From Dehalococcoidia bacterium (GTDB lineage: Bacteria; Chloroflexota; Dehalococcoidia; Lucifugimonadales; CAZENU01), in assembly GCA_965117035.1 (NCBI GenBank), contig OZ220748.1, forward strand, positions 390,339 through 414,338: a stretch of 24,000 bases of DNA, written 5' to 3'. Shown in pieces: positions 3,249-17,383 of the stretch (positions are counted from its first letter, which is position 1; the number at the start of each line of letters is the position of its first letter). The notes below the pieces were generated by a model. It was given only the letters and a program-made list of their open reading frames with translations. It made no database searches and was not told where the DNA came from. Position numbers and translations under genes: made by a program.

Positions 3249-5023
3249 CGACCTGGCAGTACCTCGTAGGCCTGGCCCGGTACCAGCCGCGCTACTTCGG
3301 GATGCTGGCCGCCCGCACGATCAGCATCGCGCTCATACCGCAGGGCGTCGCCCTGACGACCAAGGCCATATTCGACAACATGACGAACGAGCAGGCCGCG
3401 ACGGTCGGCTTCTGGAGTCTCGCGGCGATCCTCGTGGGCCTCGCCGTCGGCCGGTCGCTGATCATATTCGGCAACGTAGTGCTGAGCGTGCGGGTGGAGT
3501 TCACCTTCGCGACGCTGCTGCGCAAGAACGTGTTCGACCACGTGCTCGACCAGCCGGGCAACCGCGCGCTGCCGGAGTCGACCGGCGAGGCGGTGACGCG
3601 GTTCCGGGAGGACGTCGACTACATCACCCGCTACCTGCAGCGGTTCGGGTTCGCGCTCCCGCTCGTGGTGTTCGCCGTGGTGGCGCTGTACGTCATGGTC
3701 CAGATCAGCCCGCTGATCACCTTCGCCGTCTTCCTGCCGCTGGCGCTGATCATGCTCACGGTGAGCGCGGCTACCCGGTGGCTGCGCCGTTTCCGCATCG
3801 ACAACAGGGAGTCGACCGGCGACGTGACGAGCCTGCTGGGCGAGATGTTCGGCTCGGTGGAGGCGATCAAGGTCGCGAACGCCGAGCACCGGATGCTGGG
3901 CGAGCTGAAGCGACTGAACAGCCGCCGCAAGACGTACACGATCCGCGATACGCTGCTGACGCAGGCGCTCAACTCGGTCTTCCAGAACACTGTGACGATC
4001 GGCACGGGCCTGATACTGCTGATCGCGGCGTCGGAGATGCGCAGCGGCTCGTTCTCGATCGGCGACTTCGCGCTGTTCGTGAGCTACCTGTACACGGTCG
4101 GCTGGCTGAACACGGAGGTCGGCGGCGTGCTGGCCGAGTACCGCCAGACCGGGGTATCGTTCGACCGGCTCAGGCGGCTGATGCCGAGCGCGCCGCCCGG
4201 CAATCTCGTGCGCCACCGGGAAGCCCATCTCGCCGGACCGCTGCCCGAAGTGCCGTACGCGGCCCGGACCGAGGCCGACCGCCTCGACGTCGTGGATGTC
4301 GACGGCCTCGGCTACCGCTATGGGGGCAACGGCCGGGGTATCGAGGACATCCGGCTGCGTGTGCCGCGCGGCTCGTTCACGGTCGTGACGGGGCGCATAG
4401 GCTCGGGCAAGACGACGCTGCTGCGGGTGCTGCTGGGACTGCTGCCGAGAGACGCGGGCGTGGTGAGGTGGAACGGCGAGCCGGTGGAAGACCTGGCCGC
4501 ATTCTTCGTGCCGCCGCGCTCGGCGTACACGTCCCAGGTTCCGCGGCTGTTCAGCGAGCCGCTGAGAGACAACATTCTCATGGGCCTGCCGGAGCAGCGG
4601 TCCGACCTCGACGGCGCCGTCCGGGCGGCTGTCATGGAAGACGACGTCGATGAGCTGGAGGACGGGCTGGACACGGTGGTTGGCGCGCGCGGCGTGAAGC
4701 TGTCGGGCGGCCAGCTACGGCGCTCGGCCGCGGCCAGGATGTTCGTCCGCGAGCCCGAGCTGCTGGTCTTCGACGACCTGTCGTCGGGGCTGGACGTGGA
4801 CACGGAGCGGGAGCTCTGGGCGCGCCTCTTCGCGCGGCCGGACGCCACGGCGCTGGTCGTGTCTCACCGGCGCGCCGCGCTCCGCCGCGCCGACCACGTC
4901 GTCGTCCTCAAGGACGGCCGCGTCGACGCGGAGGGCACGCTGGACGAGCTGCTGGTCAGCTCCGATGAGATGCGCCGCCTCTGGGCCGGCGACATCGGCG
5001 AGCCCGGCGAACCGGGCGGGTGA
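3245..5023 (+). CDS. ABC exporter subunit 2, fused permease plus ATPase, partner of the upstream subunit
   Basis: GTG at 3245 overlaps the upstream stop (GTGA, 4-nt overlap), suggesting translational coupling. NBD motifs: Walker [10 protein letters not shown], canonical signature LSGGQ, Walker [10 protein letters not shown] (Asp where the catalytic Glu is expected), H-loop VVSHRR. The ORF-track N-terminal extension from 2870 lies inside the previous gene in another frame and is Arg/Ala-rich junk. Confidence 0.9.
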
Positions 5024-5103
5024 AGGCGCGCCCAGCACTCGGCACCGAATTCCTTAGTGCTCCGGCCCGTTCGACCCACGACCTTATCCGATAGAGATAC
5101 ATT

Positions 5104-6405
5104 ATGACTGAAGACAGGATTGCGGAGTACAAGACCAGGTACTCGATGGACGACACGCTCAGGCTACTCGATGCCGTGCCGTTGAAGCCCGACTTGTCGC
5201 GAGATCACATGCTGGTGGGAATAACCAATCGGGCGGCGATAGCACACCTCGCCATAGAGCGGGGACTCAAGCACTTGGTAGAGAGAGCCGGCGGAGCTTT
5301 CAAGCACGAACACGGGCTCGGCCAGTTCTACAGGCAACTCTCAAGATTGGACCAAGCGACCGCCGATCAACTAGCAGACGCGTTCGACGACGCCGTGCAG
5401 TTCTTCGGGTACAACCCGAACTCCAAGGGTTTCTGTCATCTCCGTTCGCTCGGGGATTATCTCTCGCAGACAGGGAGTAAGGATGCGTTTCAGCGGCTGC
5501 GCTATTGGGCAATAGGCGAATCTGAACCGACGCAGCCTCCCTACCTAGTCCTGCACCGTGAGCTGCTGTATTACCTCACGCGGTTACTCTGGACGGCACC
5601 GGAGACCGTTACTGCAAGGGTAGAGCGCCTTATCTTCGATGCACTGTACAAGGACCGGCAAATTTCCTGGGTTGAGGGAGACACAGAAACGGAAGCCTCC
5701 GTACGCCTGTACAGAGATTGGCTCCGCAGCCACGACTCAGGACGGCATGCTATACGGGACATCAAGCAATCAGCGTTCGAGGTCGGGGACGAGTTTGCCA
5801 ATCGAATAGTGCGAGAAGCGTACGACGAGCTGTCCGTATCTGACGACGACGCAGTGCGGTATTTCTTGCTGACGCTCGAATATCTACCCAAGGGTTCTCA
5901 GCCACGGCCTGCAGATGCAGCTCCTGTCGTTCAATTCAACGCCAATGAGACTCGAGGTTTCTTCGCAACGCCCAGCGGAAGCGATTTGGGTTGGCTCGAA
6001 AAACGCCACGATAACTCATGGCTCGTTCAGCCCTGGATCCACTCGGATAGTGCTCCACCTGCCATCGTCCAATCTCTCGCGGATGCCAAGAACTACGTCG
6101 TCAACAGTGTGACCCGCATGCTCCGGGTCCATGTCGACGACGAACCCAGGGACCTACGCATCGTTAGCCGATTCGACTTTCTCATCTCACGATCCGCCGC
6201 CGATTGGGATAGTGTTCTCGCAGGCAAGAGCCAGGACTATGAGCTTGAGTTCTGGGACGACGCGCATGGTCTCGTAGTCGGCGATGAAGTGAAGGCCAGA
6301 ATGGAATCAAACACGCATTCGGCCATTGAAGGTCTAGTCGTAGAAGTTGAGGGTTGCAGGGTCGTGGTAGAGGGAACTGAGATTCCATCCTCCCGGGTCC
6401 CATAG
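5104..6405 (+). CDS. Hypothetical protein, 433 aa, compositional outlier; N-terminal helical region with a HEPN-like helix pattern (unverified)
   Basis: Single long ORF with no competing ORF and balanced, non-GC-artefact amino-acid composition. Hand-counted lines give about 50-55% G+C versus about 70-78% in the flanking genes. The upstream 60 nt are AT-rich and there is only a weak RBS (agagatacattATG). I recognise no family. The segment AIERGLKHLVERAGGAFKHEHGL loosely resembles the conserved helix of classical HEPN domains. Confidence 0.75.
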   Translation: MTEDRIAEYKTRYSMDDTLRLLDAVPLKPDLSRDHMLVGITNRAAIAHLAIERGLKHLVERAGGAFKHEHGLGQFYRQLSRLDQATADQLADAFDDAVQFFGYNPNSKGFCHLRSLGDYLSQTGSKDAFQRLRYWAIGESEPTQPPYLVLHRELLYYLTRLLWTAPETVTARVERLIFDALYKDRQISWVEGDTETEASVRLYRDWLRSHDSGRHAIRDIKQSAFEVGDEFANRIVREAYDELSVSDDDAVRYFLLTLEYLPKGSQPRPADAAPVVQFNANETRGFFATPSGSDLGWLEKRHDNSWLVQPWIHSDSAPPAIVQSLADAKNYVVNSVTRMLRVHVDDEPRDLRIVSRFDFLISRSAADWDSVLAGKSQDYELEFWDDAHGLVVGDEVKARMESNTHSAIEGLVVEVEGCRVVVEGTEIPSSRVP

Positions 6406-6420
6406 TGGGCCAAGTCGTAC

Positions 6421-7236
6421 TCAGACCGGGCCGATGTCGGCGACGTTCAGCACTTCGGTGACGTGGTCGATGGTGTGGTCCGGGGGGAGCAGGTCGGGCG
6501 GGCATTTGCGGCCGCGCCGGATCCAGGCGGCCTCCATTCCGAACCGCTTCGCGCCGTCTATGTCGGCGACGGGGTTGTCGCCGACGAACATGACGTCATT
6601 GGGCTCCGTCAGGCCGGTGGCCCCGAGGGCGTCGCGGAAGATGCGCGGGTCCGGCTTCCTGTAGCCGGCCTCCTCGGAGACGATGATGAAGGGGGCGAGC
6701 GTGTCGAGGCCCGCCGCCCGGCACTTGGCGTGCTGGTTCGGCGAGCCGTTCGTGACGATGCCCCAGGGCACGCCGCGCTCGTTCAGCCCGGCGAGCATGG
6801 CGTTGACCTCCACGTCCGGCGCCACCTGCCGCTCCATCGCGGCACGGTACCACGCCGTCAGCGGCTCCTTGTCGAGGCCGGCCTCGGGCCACTCTTCGAG
6901 CCAGCGCGCGAGCATCGCCTCGCGGTCCGAGTAGCCGTCGTCGTCCCAGCGGACCATCATGGCGACGGCATCCTCTCGCGTCAGGGACATTTGCGTAACT
7001 CCAGGGCATGCGGCCGATTCCTCGGATGTGCGTCTGTTTCGTAGCTGGGAAGCCCCTCCCCTGGGTTCCCGCCTGCGCGGGAATGACGGTTGTGCAAGGG
7101 TCTCCGTCACGCGTGTCGCGGCGCTGAGATGCTCATCGTAGAAGCTCTCCGCGACGCCGAGGAAGGCGGCGAACCTGTCGAGCAGGGTGTTGTCCAGGTC
7201 GAACAGCAGGCCGCGTACGGTAGTGCGCAACGTCAA
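6421..7236 (-). CDS. HAD-superfamily hydrolase (subfamily IA-like), carrying an in-frame repeat-element insertion in the cap region
   Basis: Motif I is FDLDNTLLD at the N-terminus; motif II is IVTNG; a Lys follows in YRKPDP; motif IV is FVGDNPVADIDGA. Residues 44-82 (TETLAQPSFPRRREPRGG...GVTQ) are encoded by the MITE-like repeat. The start is TTG at 7236, or TTG at 7230, which has better spacing from GGAGA. Confidence 0.75.
   Translation of the reverse strand: MTLRTTVRGLLFDLDNTLLDRFAAFLGVAESFYDEHLSAATRVTETLAQPSFPRRREPRGGASQLRNRRTSEESAACPGVTQMSLTREDAVAMMVRWDDDGYSDREAMLARWLEEWPEAGLDKEPLTAWYRAAMERQVAPDVEVNAMLAGLNERGVPWGIVTNGSPNQHAKCRAAGLDTLAPFIIVSEEAGYRKPDPRIFRDALGATGLTEPNDVMFVGDNPVADIDGAKRFGMEAAWIRRGRKCPPDLLPPDHTIDHVTEVLNVADIGPV
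6990..7107. repeat. MITE/REP-like element copy A (about 100 nt: TTTGCGTAACTCCA ... CCCTGGGTTCCCGCCTGCGCGGGAATGACGGT), inserted inside the HAD gene
   Basis: The ends and core match the copy at 11660-11753 (opposite orientation) and the core at 11891-11923. The core has a 7-bp palindrome TTCCCGC/GCGGGAA. The translation gives the SFPRRREPRG-type peptide typical of such repeats read through in frame. Confidence 0.8.
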
Positions 7237-7348
7237 TCTCCGGTCGGGATGGGCAACTGTTCACGTTCGAGGGGACCGCGCGTGCGCCCTTCGATACGGC
7301 CCGCCCGGAGCGGCGGACCTGCTCAGGGTGAACGAGCTGTCTGTCCTG

Positions 7349-7582
7349 TCAAGTCTGAACAGTTACCGGGATAGGTCGGGGATAGTATCGCATGGGTGGA
7401 GGCCACCGGATCAAGACACGAGGGGCCTGCGTCCGATCCACGCGGAAGGAGGCGATTTGCGGGTCGAGCCGGTCTATGCGCGCCAGGAAGGTCTCCATGA
7501 GCTCGACCGGCGACACCTGCTTCGACGCAATCAGTTTCAGCAACTTCGTCGCCGGCTGGTATGCCAGTCGTTCGTCCGCCAT
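7349..7582 (-). pseudogene. Amidase-signature family (GatA-like amidase) 5' fragment; gene remnant
   Basis: ATG at 7582 is preceded by GGGGAGG. The first 50 or so residues (MADERLAYQPATKLLKLIASKQVSPVELMETFLARIDRLDPQIASFRVD) match the characteristic amidase N-terminus. The frame then degenerates (RTQAPRVLIRWPPPMRYYPRP) and stops after 77 aa. Full amidases are about 450-500 aa, and no downstream amidase sequence appears in any frame. Confidence 0.55.
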
Positions 7583-7750
7583 ATGTCCGCCTCCCCGGTG
7601 GCTTCGGCGCGGCGCGCCGAGCACGGCCCAATTGTAGAGCCATCCGCCGCGGGAGGGACAGGCGGTCGGCGAAGCCCTTGTCGGGTCCCAATTGCAGCTT
7701 GTCGGAAAAACTGTCACGATACCGCGCCGGAAGGAGGAGGGCAGAGAGCG

Positions 7751-9301
7751 ATGGTGTTTCTGAACGTCTGGGTGGTCTCTGTCTTCGCGGCCTACTTCGC
7801 GGTGCTCATCGGCATCGCGGTGGTGCGGTCACGGCAGATGCGCGAGATGCAGGACTACGTGCTCGGCAGCCGGCGGCTGGGCGCGGCGACCTCCGCGCTG
7901 AGCGCGAGCTCGTCGGCGGTCAGCAGCGGCTCGATGCTGGTGGTGCCGGCGCTGGCGTTCGCGGACGGCGGGATGACGCTGTGGCTGGCGGGGAGCGTCT
8001 TCCTGGGAGCGATGCTCTCCTGGACTGTGTTGCCGCGGCGGCTGCGACGCTACACGTTCGCCGCCGGGAACTCGCTCACGATCTCGGAGTTTCTCGAGAG
8101 GCGGTTCGACGATCGGACGGGCGTCCTGAGGACGCTGGTGGCGGCGGTGACGCTGTTCTTCGTGATCGTCTACATCTCGTCCGGGCTGGTGGGCGGCTCG
8201 AAGCTGCTCGAGGAGACGTTCGGCCTGGAGCCCAACACGGGAATCGTCGTGACGCTGGTCGCGGTGGCGTCGTACACGCTGGTCGGCGGGTTCCTGGCGG
8301 TGTCGCGCACCGACGTCTTCCAGTCGCTCATCATGCTGGCCTCGTTCACCATCATCCCCGCCATGCTGCTGCACGTGACGGACAACCCGGTGACGGAGAT
8401 GGTGTCGGGCCGGTCGGACTTCCTGGACCCGTTCTCCGACGCGACTGGGGGCGCGCTGTCGTGGGTCTACGTGGCGTCGCTTCCGGGCTGGGCGCTGGGG
8501 GCGTTCGGCTCCCTGCGGGTGCTGCAGCGGTACATGGCGATCGAGGACGAGGCGCGGATTCCGGCGAGCCGCAACATAGGCGTCGCCTGGCTGTTCCTGA
8601 TCACCGTGTTCGGGCTGCTGATAGGCTGGGCGGCCCGCCCGGCGCTGGAGCAGGCGGGAATGCTGGCAGCGGCAGCGGACCCCGAGAAAGTGTACTTCGT
8701 GGTGACCGAGGCGTTCTTCCATCCGCTGGCGGCGGGCGTGCTGCTGTGCGGTGTCGTCGCGGCGGTGATGAGCACGGCAGACTCGCAGTTGCTGCTGGCC
8801 TCGGCGGTGGCCGCCGACGACATGCCCCTGTCGCGACGGTTGGCCCAGGCCATCCGGACGCGGTCGCGCATCTGGTTCGGGCGCATACTGCTGGTCGCGA
8901 TAGGGCTGGTCGCGATGGCTATCGCCATGTACAGGCCGGACTCGATCCTGGCGCTGGTGGCGCACGCCTTCGGCGGGATGGGCGCGGCGTTCGGCCCGTG
9001 CATCGTCCTGTCGCTGTACTGGCGGCGGTTCAACTACTGGGGCGCGCTGTCAGGAGTAGTGGCCGGGACGGCCGTGTCGTCGGTCTGGTGTTTCGCCGAG
9101 GGTGGCGTGTGGGACGTCATGGTGGGCACTCCGGGATTCGCGGCCGGCCTGGTCGCCGCGGTGGCGGCGACGCTGCTGACGCCCGCGCCGCCGTCGTCGG
9201 TCGTGGCGCTGTTCGACGAGGTGAATTCTCCGAAGCCGGGAGGGAGCCCCGGAGCGGCGCGCTACCCGGAGGGTCCTTCGTCGCGGGCCGCGCGGATGTA
9301 G
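7751..9301 (+). CDS. putP: Sodium/solute symporter (SSS family), PutP-like sodium/proline symporter
   Basis: Colinear with E. coli PutP as I recall it: DYVLGSRRLG versus DYILGGRSLG, and LVGGFLAVSRTDVFQSLIM versus IGGFLAVSWTDTVQASLM. GAAFGP is shared near the C-terminus. ATG at 7751 is preceded by AAGGAGGAGG (7731-7740). The 188-codon ORF-track extension upstream is non-membrane junk. Confidence 0.85.
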   Translation: MVFLNVWVVSVFAAYFAVLIGIAVVRSRQMREMQDYVLGSRRLGAATSALSASSSAVSSGSMLVVPALAFADGGMTLWLAGSVFLGAMLSWTVLPRRLRRYTFAAGNSLTISEFLERRFDDRTGVLRTLVAAVTLFFVIVYISSGLVGGSKLLEETFGLEPNTGIVVTLVAVASYTLVGGFLAVSRTDVFQSLIMLASFTIIPAMLLHVTDNPVTEMVSGRSDFLDPFSDATGGALSWVYVASLPGWALGAFGSLRVLQRYMAIEDEARIPASRNIGVAWLFLITVFGLLIGWAARPALEQAGMLAAAADPEKVYFVVTEAFFHPLAAGVLLCGVVAAVMSTADSQLLLASAVAADDMPLSRRLAQAIRTRSRIWFGRILLVAIGLVAMAIAMYRPDSILALVAHAFGGMGAAFGPCIVLSLYWRRFNYWGALSGVVAGTAVSSVWCFAEGGVWDVMVGTPGFAAGLVAAVAATLLTPAPPSSVVALFDEVNSPKPGGSPGAARYPEGPSSRAARM

Positions 9302-10443
9302 AGTGCCGTGGGCAGCGCGACGATGGCCACGGCCGCGCTGACGAAGAAGGGGGCGCCGAGTCCCGTGGCCATCTCGGCCGTCAGGCCGGAGACCCCCGAC
9401 CCTACGACGACGCCCAGCGAGTATACGGCGTAGAAGATGCCGAAGGCGATGCCCCTGCGGCGGCTGGACGCGACCTCCGAGACGGTCGTGCCCAGCGACG
9501 GGAACAGCAGGCCGAAGCCGAGGCCGAAGACGACCATCGCTCCCAGGGCAGGGACGGTCGCTCCGTCGGACGCGGCCAGGACGACGCCGCTACCGCAGAG
9601 GAGCGCGAGTCCCAGGAGCACCGCGAGCCTGCGCGATACCTGGTCGACCGCCCGGTGCGCCGGGCTTCCCATCACGACGGTCGCCACGAGCGAGAATGTC
9701 GCGAAGGCGATGCCGGAGATGCGGGGAGCGGCCCCGGCTGCCTCCAGGGCAATCGGGAGGTGGTTGATGAGGGCGCCGATGCAGAACGTCATCGCGATGA
9801 GCGCGCAGAACACCGGCGCCAGCCGGCGCCACATCTCCGTCGATGGGCGTGTGCCGTCCGCGTCCGGACGTTCCGTGGGTGCGACCGACGCTCCGGGCAC
9901 GCGCACGAGGAACACGACGGCGGCGACGAGCATCAGCGTGCCGCTCGTGGCGAACACGGCCCCGAAGTCCCAGATGTCCCGGATCAACGCGGCGGCCGGA
10001 GGGCCTATGACTGCGGAGACGGCGATGAGGGCGCCGGTCATGCCGATGGAGCGGGTCTGGTGTCGGCTCGCGCGGTCGCCGAGCATCGCGAACGCGCCGG
10101 GCGCCAGCACGCCCGCGGCCAGGCCGTGGAACGCGCGGAGCGCGAGTAGCTGGCCCGGCGTCGACACGAACGCGTAGAGGTAGAGCGACACCGCGGTCAG
10201 CAGCATCCCGGCGGCGACCAGTCGCCTGCGGTCCAGCCTGTCGAGCAGCGCGCCCGCGCCGACGTTGCCGATGAGGTTGGACGCCGAGTACATCCCGACG
10301 ATGGCGCCGCCCATCGACGCCGACGCCCCGAGCGACTTCGCGTAGGCCGAGATCACGGGCAACTGCATGAACAGGTCGAGGAACGCGACGAGCACAACGG
10401 CCCGGATGGCCCAGGTAGTGGATAGTGGATAGTGGATAGTCAA
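9262..10443 (-). CDS. MFS transporter
   Basis: Twelve-TM-like hydrophobic profile. The MFS loop motif is LLDRLDRRRL (the G-x-L-x-D-R-x-G-R-R region) after TM2. The 3' end overlaps putP by 40 nt (convergent). The start is unresolved: TTG 10443 or GTG 10530, and both lie in or upstream of the heptamer repeat array; GTG 10395 would truncate TM1. Confidence 0.8.
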   Translation of the reverse strand: MTIHYPLSTTWAIRAVVLVAFLDLFMQLPVISAYAKSLGASASMGGAIVGMYSASNLIGNVGAGALLDRLDRRRLVAAGMLLTAVSLYLYAFVSTPGQLLALRAFHGLAAGVLAPGAFAMLGDRASRHQTRSIGMTGALIAVSAVIGPPAAALIRDIWDFGAVFATSGTLMLVAAVVFLVRVPGASVAPTERPDADGTRPSTEMWRRLAPVFCALIAMTFCIGALINHLPIALEAAGAAPRISGIAFATFSLVATVVMGSPAHRAVDQVSRRLAVLLGLALLCGSGVVLAASDGATVPALGAMVVFGLGFGLLFPSLGTTVSEVASSRRRGIAFGIFYAVYSLGVVVGSGVSGLTAEMATGLGAPFFVSAAVAIVALPTALYIRAARDEGPSG

Positions 10444-10477
10444 GATAGTGGATAGTGAATAGTGGATAGTTGGGAAG
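10417..10477. repeat. Heptamer array (AGTGGAT)n, left arm of the inverted repeat flanking the four-helix-bundle gene
   Basis: AGTGGAT occurs three times perfectly (10417-10437), followed by degenerate units (AGTCAAG, AGTGGAT, AGTGAAT, AGTGGAT, AGTTGGG). The array abuts the TAA stop of the 10478-10831 gene. It is complementary to the array at 10826-10878. Confidence 0.9.
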
Positions 10478-10831
10478 TTAGGGGCGGAGGGATTTGACGA
10501 GGCCGGTGAGGAGTCTGCCGGTTTCGTCACAGAGTTTCAACGCATCGTCTGAGGTTGGTTTGGGCAAGAGATCCAAGTTGCGGCACAGCGTCAGGAGCGT
10601 CTCCAATTCTGCCAGCGAGCCTCGTGCGACGCCGAGGAAATGGAGGAACTCCCCGGTCCCGTGCCTGGCCTGACCCTCCGCGATGTTTGCAGGAATGGAC
10701 ACTGCCGCCCGCGTCAACTGCGACCGGATTCCATACGTCTCTTCCTTCGGTAACAGCCGCGCACAGCGGTAGATCGCTTCGGCGAGGCTCATCGACTTCT
10801 GCCAGGCGACGAGCTCCCCGTAACTATTCAC
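10478..10831 (-). CDS. Four-helix-bundle protein (23S rRNA intervening-sequence protein family, PF05635/TIGR02436; same fold family as DGR Avd)
   Basis: 117 aa with the family hallmarks ELVAWQKSMSLAEAIY, YGIRSQLTRAAVSIPANIAEGQAR and FLHFLGVARGSLAELETLL. The GTG start at 10831 lies inside a repeat unit (GTGAATAGT). Confidence 0.9.
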   Translation of the reverse strand: MNSYGELVAWQKSMSLAEAIYRCARLLPKEETYGIRSQLTRAAVSIPANIAEGQARHGTGEFLHFLGVARGSLAELETLLTLCRNLDLLPKPTSDDALKLCDETGRLLTGLVKSLRP

Positions 10832-10878
10832 TATCCACTATCCACTATCCACTATCCCACTACTCCCACTACTCCCCC
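10826..10878. repeat. Heptamer array (ATCCACT)n, right arm of the inverted repeat, then CCCACTACT x2
   Basis: CACTATCCACTATCCACTATCCACTATCC is the reverse complement of the left-arm units. At least 24 nt of perfect complementarity exist with 10417-10440. The array ends 1 nt from the stop (10879) of the upstream gene. Confidence 0.9.
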
Positions 10879-11624: not shown

Positions 11625-11753
11625 CCCCCTGGATTCCCGACTGCAGAAACTACTGTATCACCGTCATTCCCGCGCAGGCGGGAATCCAGGGGCGGGGGCC
11701 TTCCAGATACGAAGACGACGCATCTGTTACCCACAGGTGGAGTTACGCAAAGG
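11625..11753. repeat. MITE/REP-like element copy B (reverse orientation) plus an adjacent partial core forming a large palindrome
   Basis: The reverse complement of 11660-11753 reads TTTGCGTAACTCCA...CCCCTGGATTCCCGCCTGCGCGGGAATGACGGT and aligns end-to-end with copy A. 11625-11646 (CCCCTGGATTCCCGACTGCAG) is a degenerate core in the opposite orientation. Confidence 0.8.
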
Positions 11754-11890
11754 TCTCACCACACGGGAAGGATGGTTGTGCGGAGGTTTCAGCTCGCCGT
11801 GGTGACCGTCGTGCCTGAGTCTCCGCCGACAGGAACACCATCCGCGCATCCCGTTTCCGTGGAGACCGGAACCCCGCCAAGCGCCTCCAC

Positions 11891-11923
11891 GCCCTGGGTT
11901 CCCGCCTGCGCGGGAATGACGGT
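11891..11923. repeat. MITE/REP-like element core, copy C (same orientation as copy A)
   Basis: GCCCTGGGTTCCCGCCTGCGCGGGAATGACGGT is identical to the core at 7058-7090. Weaker similarity extends roughly 50 nt upstream. Confidence 0.8.
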
Positions 11924-12017
11924 CAGGCAGGGGCCTCCGTGCGGTGCAATGGCGGTAATGCGGCGGCGCACGTCGTGATCGGGGGCGAGGGATATGGCGT
12001 CGAGATGCGGTCGCGGG

Positions 12018-14052: not shown

Positions 14053-14086
14053 ATAGTGGATAGTGAATAGTGGATAGTTGGGGAGT
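14053..14086. repeat. Solo copy of the heptamer-cassette end
   Basis: ATAGTGGATAGTGAATAGTGGATAGTTGGG (14053-14082) is 30/30 identical to 10445-10474, and 33/34 identical through 14086. It lies in the 117-bp divergent intergenic region and directly abuts the dehydratase start. Confidence 0.9.
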
Positions 14087-14168
14087 GAATCGCGGCGTTG
14101 ACAGCTTGGGGGCGAAAACCTAGAGTACGGGCTCCGAACATCCCATAGTCGAGAGGCGAGGTACAAAC

Positions 14169-17165: not shown

Positions 17166-17201
17166 GGGCGACGCGGCCTACGCTGGAGGCTTCAGGGGGA
17201 C

Positions 17202-17383
17202 GTGGTTGCGTTGGATGGCGGGCGGCCGCATGTCGGTGGCTGTCACCCTCACCCCAGCCCTCTCCCGCCGAGGGAGAGGGGGTCAAGAGTCCCGTCGTGG
17301 CTACGGCGGATGGGGGTAGGTCGCATGTTGGTGGCTGTCACCCTCACCCCAGCCCTCTCCCGTCGAGGGAGAGGGGGTCAAAG
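17202..17383. repeat. Tandem duplication (two units of about 87 nt, 95-nt period) of a REP-like element with a 9-bp hairpin
   Basis: Units at 17202-17288 and 17297-17383 share GGTGGCTGTCACCCTCACCCCAGCCCTCTCCCG(C/T)CGAGGGAGAGGGGGTCAA. The hairpin is CCCTCTCCC (17258-17266) / GGGAGAGGG (17272-17280), repeated in unit 2. The repeat lies between the D-aminoacylase stop and the TauE start. Confidence 0.9.

Follow-up and report, generated by a model that had tools for sequence, protein, structure and literature searches.

In-frame insertion of a REP-bearing MITE into a HAD-IA hydrolase gene of a Dehalococcoidia bacterium

In the stretch of 24,000 nucleotides from a Dehalococcoidia genome that we analysed (hereafter the window), a gene for a HAD-IA hydrolase was found to contain 42 additional codons that are almost certainly the product of a real insertion event by a MITE. 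The original prediction, made from the letters of the window, had proposed a MITE/REP-like element in frame in a HAD gene, and this proposal is sustained by terminal inverted repeats (TIRs), a target duplication, many further copies in the genome, an IS5-family parent element and a REP hairpin. In the account that we favour, a MITE of ~123 nt with IS5-matching ends and a CGTC-1 REP would have transposed into the HAD-IA gene, where it would have entered a mini-palindrome (CGCG-TGA-CGCG) of the coding sequence that looks like its usual target, with a duplication of 4-5 bp, so that the full-length protein would have gained a loop of 42 residues while the four catalytic motifs stayed intact. The loop would be tolerated and passively carried in a translatable, probably active enzyme; tolerance and retained activity are what we infer from the sequence and the structural model, and the account as a whole, MITE insertion included, appears to us reasonably probable. 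The coordinates of the features are collected in Table 1.

Table 1. Features of the HAD locus and of related elements (window positions unless stated otherwise)
Feature	Position	Strand	Remarks
HAD-IA hydrolase ORF with insert	6421..7236	minus	271 codons from the first TTG
Shine-Dalgarno GGAG of the HAD ORF	7241-7238	minus	read directly
Inserted codons, residues 45-86 (ETLAQ...QMSLT)	6979..7104	minus	gap in every orthologue
MITE copy in the HAD gene	6984..7105	minus	122 nt, GGAGACC...GTCCC
Target-site duplication TGACG, upstream copy	7105..7109	minus	single site in relative L054
Target-site duplication TGACG, downstream copy	6979..6983	minus	single site in relative L054
5' terminal inverted repeat of the HAD copy	7089..7105	minus	GGAGACCCTTGCACAAC; matches IS left end
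CGTC-1 type REP hairpin in the MITE	7062..7088	minus	CGTC tag, 8-bp stem ATTCCCGC, loop GCAG, tail CCA
3' terminal inverted repeat of the HAD copy, degenerate	6984..6999	minus	GTTACGCAAATGTCCC vs consensus GTTACGCAAAGGTCTCC
Internal start	6988..7002	minus	GGAG 7002-6999, 8 nt, in-frame ATG 6990-6988; inside 3' TIR
Intergenic full-length family member	11648..11757	plus	degenerate 5' TIR; nhmmer
Intergenic partial family member, 5' TIR and REP	11892..11937	minus	nhmmer
Second in-frame MITE copy	genome 2277654-2277774		gene L059:201-2138 (minus) = G000:C1:2276079-2278016
IS and MITE composite	L051:301-1626 = G000:C1:1781583-1782908		only IS copy with intact transposase ORF

The interrupted gene and the borders of the insert

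The identity of the interrupted gene was clear from above-cutoff matches of its ORF to Pfam (PF00702, 74 bits, and PF13419, 71.9 bits) and to the NCBIfam model TIGR01549 (HAD-SF-IA-v1; 58.3 bits, with a cutoff of 23.3). Motif I (DLDNTLLD) is encoded at 7200-7177 on the minus strand, and an alignment of 34 orthologues showed that all catalytic motifs I-IV are kept (D13/D15, T162, K194 and D220/D225, respectively; all of these but T162 are listed as invariant), in line with the initial reading that motif I precedes the insert and that the remainder of the enzyme follows it. The protein has the DxDxT, T/S, K and DxxxD signatures as well as the helical cap between motifs I and II by which HAD-IA enzymes are recognized, and a Foldseek and profile search retrieved the C1-capped HAD-IA enzymes NANP (2gfh), PH1655 (2hoq) and YfnB (3i76). 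Among the 880 homologues retrieved from a large protein collection, the best ones measure 224-236 aa with few exceptions. The first TTG of the ORF (7236) lies only 1 nt from the GGAG sequence and the second (7230-7228) 7 nt after it; because the orthologues begin at the latter, TTG 7230 is the likely true start, which would give a product of 269 aa. A promoter and terminator scan of window positions 6350-7850 returned none.

Among the relatives found, the ENA metagenome contig L054 is the closest; its nucleotide identity to the window is ~91% over the locus. The target site is present once in this contig and twice in the window, where the junctions read ...ACGCG-TGACG-[element]-TGACG-CGAGAG, and the DNA added to the gene therefore amounts to 126 nt (42 codons, from GAG at 7104 to ACG at 6979). 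A blastn comparison aligned window positions 7442-7105 and 6982-6439 with the contig, in such a way that 4 nt were aligned twice and 122 nt (6983-7104) stayed unmatched. The 126 nt are made up of an element of 121/122 nt, matched by nhmmer at 6986-7105 (model positions 1-121, E 4e-27), and a target duplication of 4-5 nt. The exact length of the duplication depends on whether the G/C at the end of the TIRs, which is indistinguishable from the duplicated bases, is counted with them; other copies of the MITE are flanked by direct duplications of 4-6 nt.

An exactly 42-column gap was found opposite ETLAQ...QMSLT in all 34 aligned HAD orthologues, and whole-genome searches revealed a contiguous empty site in each of the five orthologue-bearing relatives examined (G002-G004, which belong to the same genus, G010 and G023). 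The expectation that orthologues would show a gap exactly at the repeat was thus correct in its position and wrong in its size, since the 39 codons originally assigned to the insert are 42 according to both the orthologue gap and the junctions in the contig. Two observations that had been named in advance as counter-evidence were not made: no orthologue free of the repeat carries a homologous segment (34/34 are gapped), and the similarity of the insert to other copies, present in dozens of places in the genome, is far from insignificant (BLAST E-values of 1e-22 to 1e-14). Two metagenome scans, one with the upstream junction flank and one with the 5' unit of the MITE, gave no matches. The insertion in the HAD gene would have taken place after the split of the lineage from its closest sequenced relative.

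The MITE family, its REP hairpin and a putative IS5-family parent

The genome of 3.79 Mb (a single contig with 66.9% GC, metagenome-derived (MAG)) was searched with an nhmmer profile built from long copies, which gave 179 hits; full-length copies account for 62 of these, and the modal length is ~123 nt. The consensus element starts with GGAGACCYTTGCRTAAC and ends in its reverse complement, which defines a TIR of 17 nt; in the TIR pair (GGAGACCYTTGCRTAAC / GTTAYGCAARGGTCTCC) 9-16 of the 17 positions are complementary in individual copies, and 11 in the HAD copy. Subfamilies are defined by a variable central hairpin. In the window itself the HAD copy pairs with 11660-11697 (38 nt, 95%) and 11892-11940 (49 nt, 90%), and the recurrence of the insert in intergenic DNA that had been noticed from the sequence corresponds to two family members detected by nhmmer (Table 1), which share one intergenic gap. 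The full element is present in three of the four same-genus genomes searched; relatives from other families of the order have only the hairpin part in common with it. The element is shorter than 500 bp and without a transposase gene, has TIRs, a duplication and an empty site, occurs in dispersed copies and has a matching IS, and by every sequence criterion tested it is classified as a MITE.

The HAD copy is the most diverged full-length member of the family (its nearest neighbour is 81% identical, versus a family median of 90%) and its predicted fold is the second weakest (-42 versus a median of -52 kcal/mol). The RNA fold of this copy is no stabler than that of shuffled sequence (z = -0.48), and the copy is therefore without sign of being a structured RNA element. 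No family was matched in an Rfam scan of the whole window; the element therefore does not correspond to any described RNA.

Directly after the left TIR the family consensus contains the hairpin CGTC-ATTCCCGC-GCAG-GCGGGAAY-CCA, which reads CGTC-ATTCCCGC-GCAG-GCGGGAAC-CCA in the HAD copy. The REPs of class CGTC-1 have been described as having a CGTC tag, a stem of 8 bp whose first pairs are A-T, a loop of 4 nt and the tail CCA, and in the same study CGTC-1 was equated with dRS3 of Neisseria, and CGTC-1 and CGTC-4 with the Rickettsia elements RPE-6 and RPE-4, respectively (Di Nocera et al. 2013, PMC3733652). The hairpin of the MITE agrees with this class in tag, stem, loop, tail and copy number: the genome contains 107 intact hairpins of the CGTC-1 type, versus 0.005 expected by chance.

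Another important finding concerned the sites at which the copies reside. Both halves of a split REP were found at the flanks of 30 of the 56 full copies (24 in one orientation and 6 in the other), one REP half at those of 22, and non-REP sites at those of only 4, the HAD copy among them. The bases duplicated in split REPs are those of the loop plus the closing pair (CGMAGG). As judged from these flanks, the family normally inserts into the loops of REP hairpins, also of those inside other copies; the copies nest into each other because each of them carries its own REP. The target site in the HAD gene (CGCG-TGA-CGCG) is a small palindrome, and we read the insertion there as off-target because this palindrome resembles the preferred loop.

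Arrays of 33-nt units (a TIR joined to a left REP half) adjoin many MITE copies, probably because of the nesting. For instance, the tandem arrays at G000:C1:1507913-1508002 and 1597874-1598073 (positions in the genome) have spacings of 33 or ~56 nt and lie beside full MITEs. Nested insertion explains some of the arrays; it should also have left right-hand remainders at 1508002, and these are absent.

A search for distant TIR pairs yielded a candidate parent IS of 1231 bp, which is present in four copies, one of them with an uninterrupted ORF. Its TIRs (GGAGACCTTTGCATAT / GGAGACCTTTGAATCT) are an imperfect inverse of each other, and its ends match the first 14-16 nt of the TIRs of the MITE. The 345-aa product is an IS5-family DDE transposase (NF033581, 272 bits, with a cutoff of 140) that also matches PF01609 (102 bits) and PF05598 (86 bits). 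One copy of the IS lies within the loop of a REP that belongs to a MITE. The composite formed by this 1231-bp IS and the 3' 95 nt of the same MITE (1326 bp in total; Table 1) is flanked on both sides by TCATG, which suggests that the end of a MITE can serve as a transposon end; the composite apparently transposed as one unit by using this end. Based on the matching ends, we infer that the MITE would be mobilised by the transposase of the 1231-bp IS, and the choice of the target would likewise lie with this IS5-family transposase.

Two other assignments were considered and rejected. An IS of 1326 bp having ~105 nt of its 3' end in common with the MITE was discarded, as the IS measures 1231 bp and the extra 95 nt are part of a MITE. 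A second IS5-family IS (1196 bp) was discarded as partner of the MITE, for its TIRs are unrelated and its target is YTAR. This second IS occurs in six near-identical copies (G000:C1:3138037-3139569 and five other sites) with the TIR GGACTCTCTGAATAAG; its flanks (CTAG, CTAA and TTAG) are typical YTAR targets of the IS5 group, and it looks recently active.

The open reading frame, the loop and the state of the gene

The reading frame of the HAD gene is open because element and duplication together measure 126 nt and because CAA replaces TAA: in the frame used, the consensus reads GCA TAA, and the HAD copy has CAA at that place, a variant that is common in the family. A frame-compatible length was found for only 16 of the 56 full copies (~29%), and frames free of stops make up ~47% for the copies of compatible length (49% of all combinations of copy and frame). 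Given these shares, a random insertion into a gene would keep the ORF with a chance of ~0.14 (~1/7). Being in frame is not a property of the MITE family, and preservation of the ORF is not improbable by chance.

The 42 added residues are rich in Arg, Pro and Ser, and their codon usage is poor: the GC3 of the insert is ~0.60 (counted by hand) versus 0.82-0.95 in the flanking coding sequence. When the protein was modelled with AlphaFold2 on the basis of the orthologue alignment (mean pLDDT of 82, and 85-95 for the Rossmann-like core), residues 45-86 had a pLDDT of 46-61 and no secondary structure, and were positioned between the helices 21-48 and 87-99. The model thus bears out the earlier suggestion of a loop in the cap domain: in the prediction, the added residues make up a disordered loop at the surface, between the first and the second helix of the C1 cap and at a distance from all four catalytic motifs.

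We also found a second in-frame copy in the genome (Table 1), in which the frame of the element (ETLAQPSFPRRRE...) is identical to that used in the HAD gene. It is located in a 645-aa, glycosyltransferase-like protein (double zinc ribbon, PMT_2 and DUF167), in the linker between the double zinc ribbon and the PMT_2-type membrane domain; four same-genus orthologues of the protein are without the MITE insert. This copy has the weakest predicted fold of the family, and its presence shows that such insertions persist in the genome. In a census of ~100 copies by coding signature (GC3 above 0.8 and GC2 near 0.5), true coding DNA on both sides was found only for the HAD copy; the second in-frame insertion came to light when one borderline copy was inspected. 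In total two of the ~100 copies lie in true coding DNA, which is not the large share of in-frame copies within ORFs that characterizes RPE-like elements. No conclusion is drawn from the fact that both are in frame, because insertions that disrupt an ORF could have escaped the census. Long ORFs across other copies were rejected, as almost all of them are off-frame artefacts of high GC in which GC1 instead of GC3 is near 0.9, and further in-frame candidates in the relatives G003 and G004 were rejected as off-frame ORFs.

The HAD gene could also be a young pseudogene or dispensable, in which case the insertion, regardless of whether it abolished activity, would have been unopposed by selection and the open frame would be luck. 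We consider this less likely. An insertion that preserves the ORF is well within reach of chance, as calculated above, and three lineage-specific structural changes are found within 2.5 kb, namely the MITE, the deletion of an amidase gene and the replacement of a GrpB gene. Just upstream of the HAD gene, an amidase gene that encodes 474 aa in L054 (PF01425) has lost 1254 bp in comparison with that contig; its remnant at window positions 7349-7717 (minus strand, junction near 7443) consists of ~46 N-terminal codons fused to the last ~30 nt. The GrpB gene found downstream of the HAD gene in L054 is replaced in the window by a 1.4-kb segment (5003-6438) of 55-57% GC within a region of ~70% GC, which was probably acquired horizontally. 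The 433-aa protein of an ORF in this segment (5104-6405, plus strand) had no Pfam or PADLOC match. By the evidence of its sequence the HAD locus is decaying in the lineage of the window, and the gene family is seemingly dispensable in the same-genus genome G001, in which a whole-genome search did not find a HAD orthologue. In addition, several substitutions have occurred at well-conserved, near-invariant positions (Tyr to Cys at residue 245 and Lys to Glu in GMKAAW), the HAD copy is the most diverged of its family, and the pairwise dN/dS of the window gene versus L054 is 0.47, the highest of the set (0.20-0.38 for the other pairs of HAD orthologues, and 0.09 for the neighbouring SSF transporter gene).

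Against loss of the gene stand its 269 codons without a stop or frameshift, although the inserted copy looks old, the intact catalytic residues and the conserved start codon and Shine-Dalgarno sequence. Moreover, the window gene fares no worse than its intact sister in the number of lineage-specific changes, determined with three outgroups (13 nonsynonymous to 8 synonymous in the window gene and 10 to 6 in the sister), or in branch dN/dS (~0.39 and ~0.65, respectively, as a hand-made three-taxon estimate from pairwise distances), tests that have low power at ~20 changes per branch. The evidence for selection on the HAD gene is mixed and weak, and the substitution rates hint at no extra relaxation. 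A tolerated loop in a translatable enzyme is the reading that we retain.

It is highly unlikely that the functional product is instead the protein of 189 aa that starts at Met83, with the MITE supplying a new ribosome-binding site and start codon. The Met directly after the insert had been pointed out before as a possible start, and the source annotation indeed contains only this truncated product (P0001), without motif I: the gene caller picked the ORF from the in-frame ATG inside the element, 8 nt upstream of which a GGAG is present. The ATG is due to a G-to-T difference from the consensus of the MITE family and is specific to the HAD copy. However, the product is without motif I (the nucleophile Asp13 as well as Asp15), strand beta-1 and cap helix 1, which rules out activity as a HAD phosphatase and makes folding unlikely; furthermore, the upstream start and its Shine-Dalgarno sequence are intact and in frame.

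Similarly, we find it quite improbable that the MITE is coding-competent in the manner of the RPEs, with an Arg-rich loop that would have been selected and reshaped for translation and that may add a function to the cap. What lies behind this idea is that the frame of the element (ETLAQPSFPRRRE...) is the same in two unrelated proteins, and that no other copies of the family are as weakly structured as the two intragenic ones. Finally, the genome is a MAG and repeats are prone to mis-assembly, but an assembly artefact, i.e. a chimeric consensus through a repeat, is hardly credible in view of the precise junctions with a 5-nt duplication of a sequence that is single in the relative and of the collinearity of both flanks with L054, and the HAD copy cannot have been pasted from another locus because its sequence is unique (81% to the nearest member).

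Relation to known systems and other repeats in the window

Some protein-coding genes are known to carry Rickettsia palindromic elements (RPEs) in frame (Ogata et al.; reviewed in PMC10969869). The MITE described here resembles these elements in that a small, palindrome-bearing repeat would add a translated peptide to otherwise conserved proteins, at the surface or in a linker, and in that RPE-4, RPE-6 and the hairpin of the MITE belong to one CGTC class of REPs. It differs from them in the share of intragenic copies (two of ~100, whereas nearly half are intragenic for some RPE families), in its structure, as it is a MITE that is bounded by TIRs, has duplicated its target and has an IS5-type parent, whereas an RPE is a bare palindrome, and in its host, a free-living-type member of the Dehalococcoidia with 67% GC.

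In-frame fusions of prokaryotic MITEs have been reported for QMITE1/2 of Coxiella, ERIC, BOX and the MITEs of Anabaena (PMC5896051, PMC10969869), and were called 'not unusual' in a review of 2024 (PMC10969869). Like these MITEs, the present family derives from an IS, is non-autonomous, has TIRs and direct repeats, and is mostly intergenic and sometimes in frame in ORFs; unlike them, it has a high GC content, contains a REP in its interior and nests in itself. ISs that target REPs are known from five families, with IS1397/ISKpn1, ISPpu9/10, IS621 and the IS5-family member ISNm1106 of Neisseria among them (Tobes and Pareja 2006, PMC1525189). The preferential insertion into REP hairpins is shared with these ISs, and ISNm1106 is likewise an IS5-family element associated with REPs of the CGTC-1/dRS3 type. 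The difference is that targeting is here observed mainly for a MITE derivative that carries its own target, which leads to nested arrays.

With the in-frame MITE in the HAD gene, one more case is added to a phenomenon that is already known; it will not surprise a specialist, and it opens no new biological question. It does provide a dissected case of a mobile element becoming protein, which covers the parent IS, the MITE and the REP carried by it, as well as the preference for certain targets, the empty site and a modelled loop. In the literature cited, which was consulted without a dedicated search, Chloroflexota and Dehalococcoidia are not discussed in connection with in-frame MITEs. Such insertions can distort the functional annotation of MAGs, since the gene caller annotated only the truncated protein without motif I.

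Several other repeats were observed in the window. A stretch of 78 nt in the gap between the amidase remnant and the HAD gene (7269-7346) matches, in reversed orientation and with 86% identity, DNA downstream of the HAD gene in L055, and is probably another small dispersed repeat. Tandem repeats of 86 nt, 88% identical to each other, are located at 17201-17286 and 17296-17381 and end in a CCCTCTCCC...GGGAGAGGG hairpin; they belong to a repeat family other than the MITE. Low-GC iterated ATAGTGGATAGTG motifs were found at 10415-10487, 10822-10856 and 14053-14095, two of the sets being inverted and ~380 nt apart and the third lying 3.6 kb away; these sets may be arrays of binding sites or the ends of another element.
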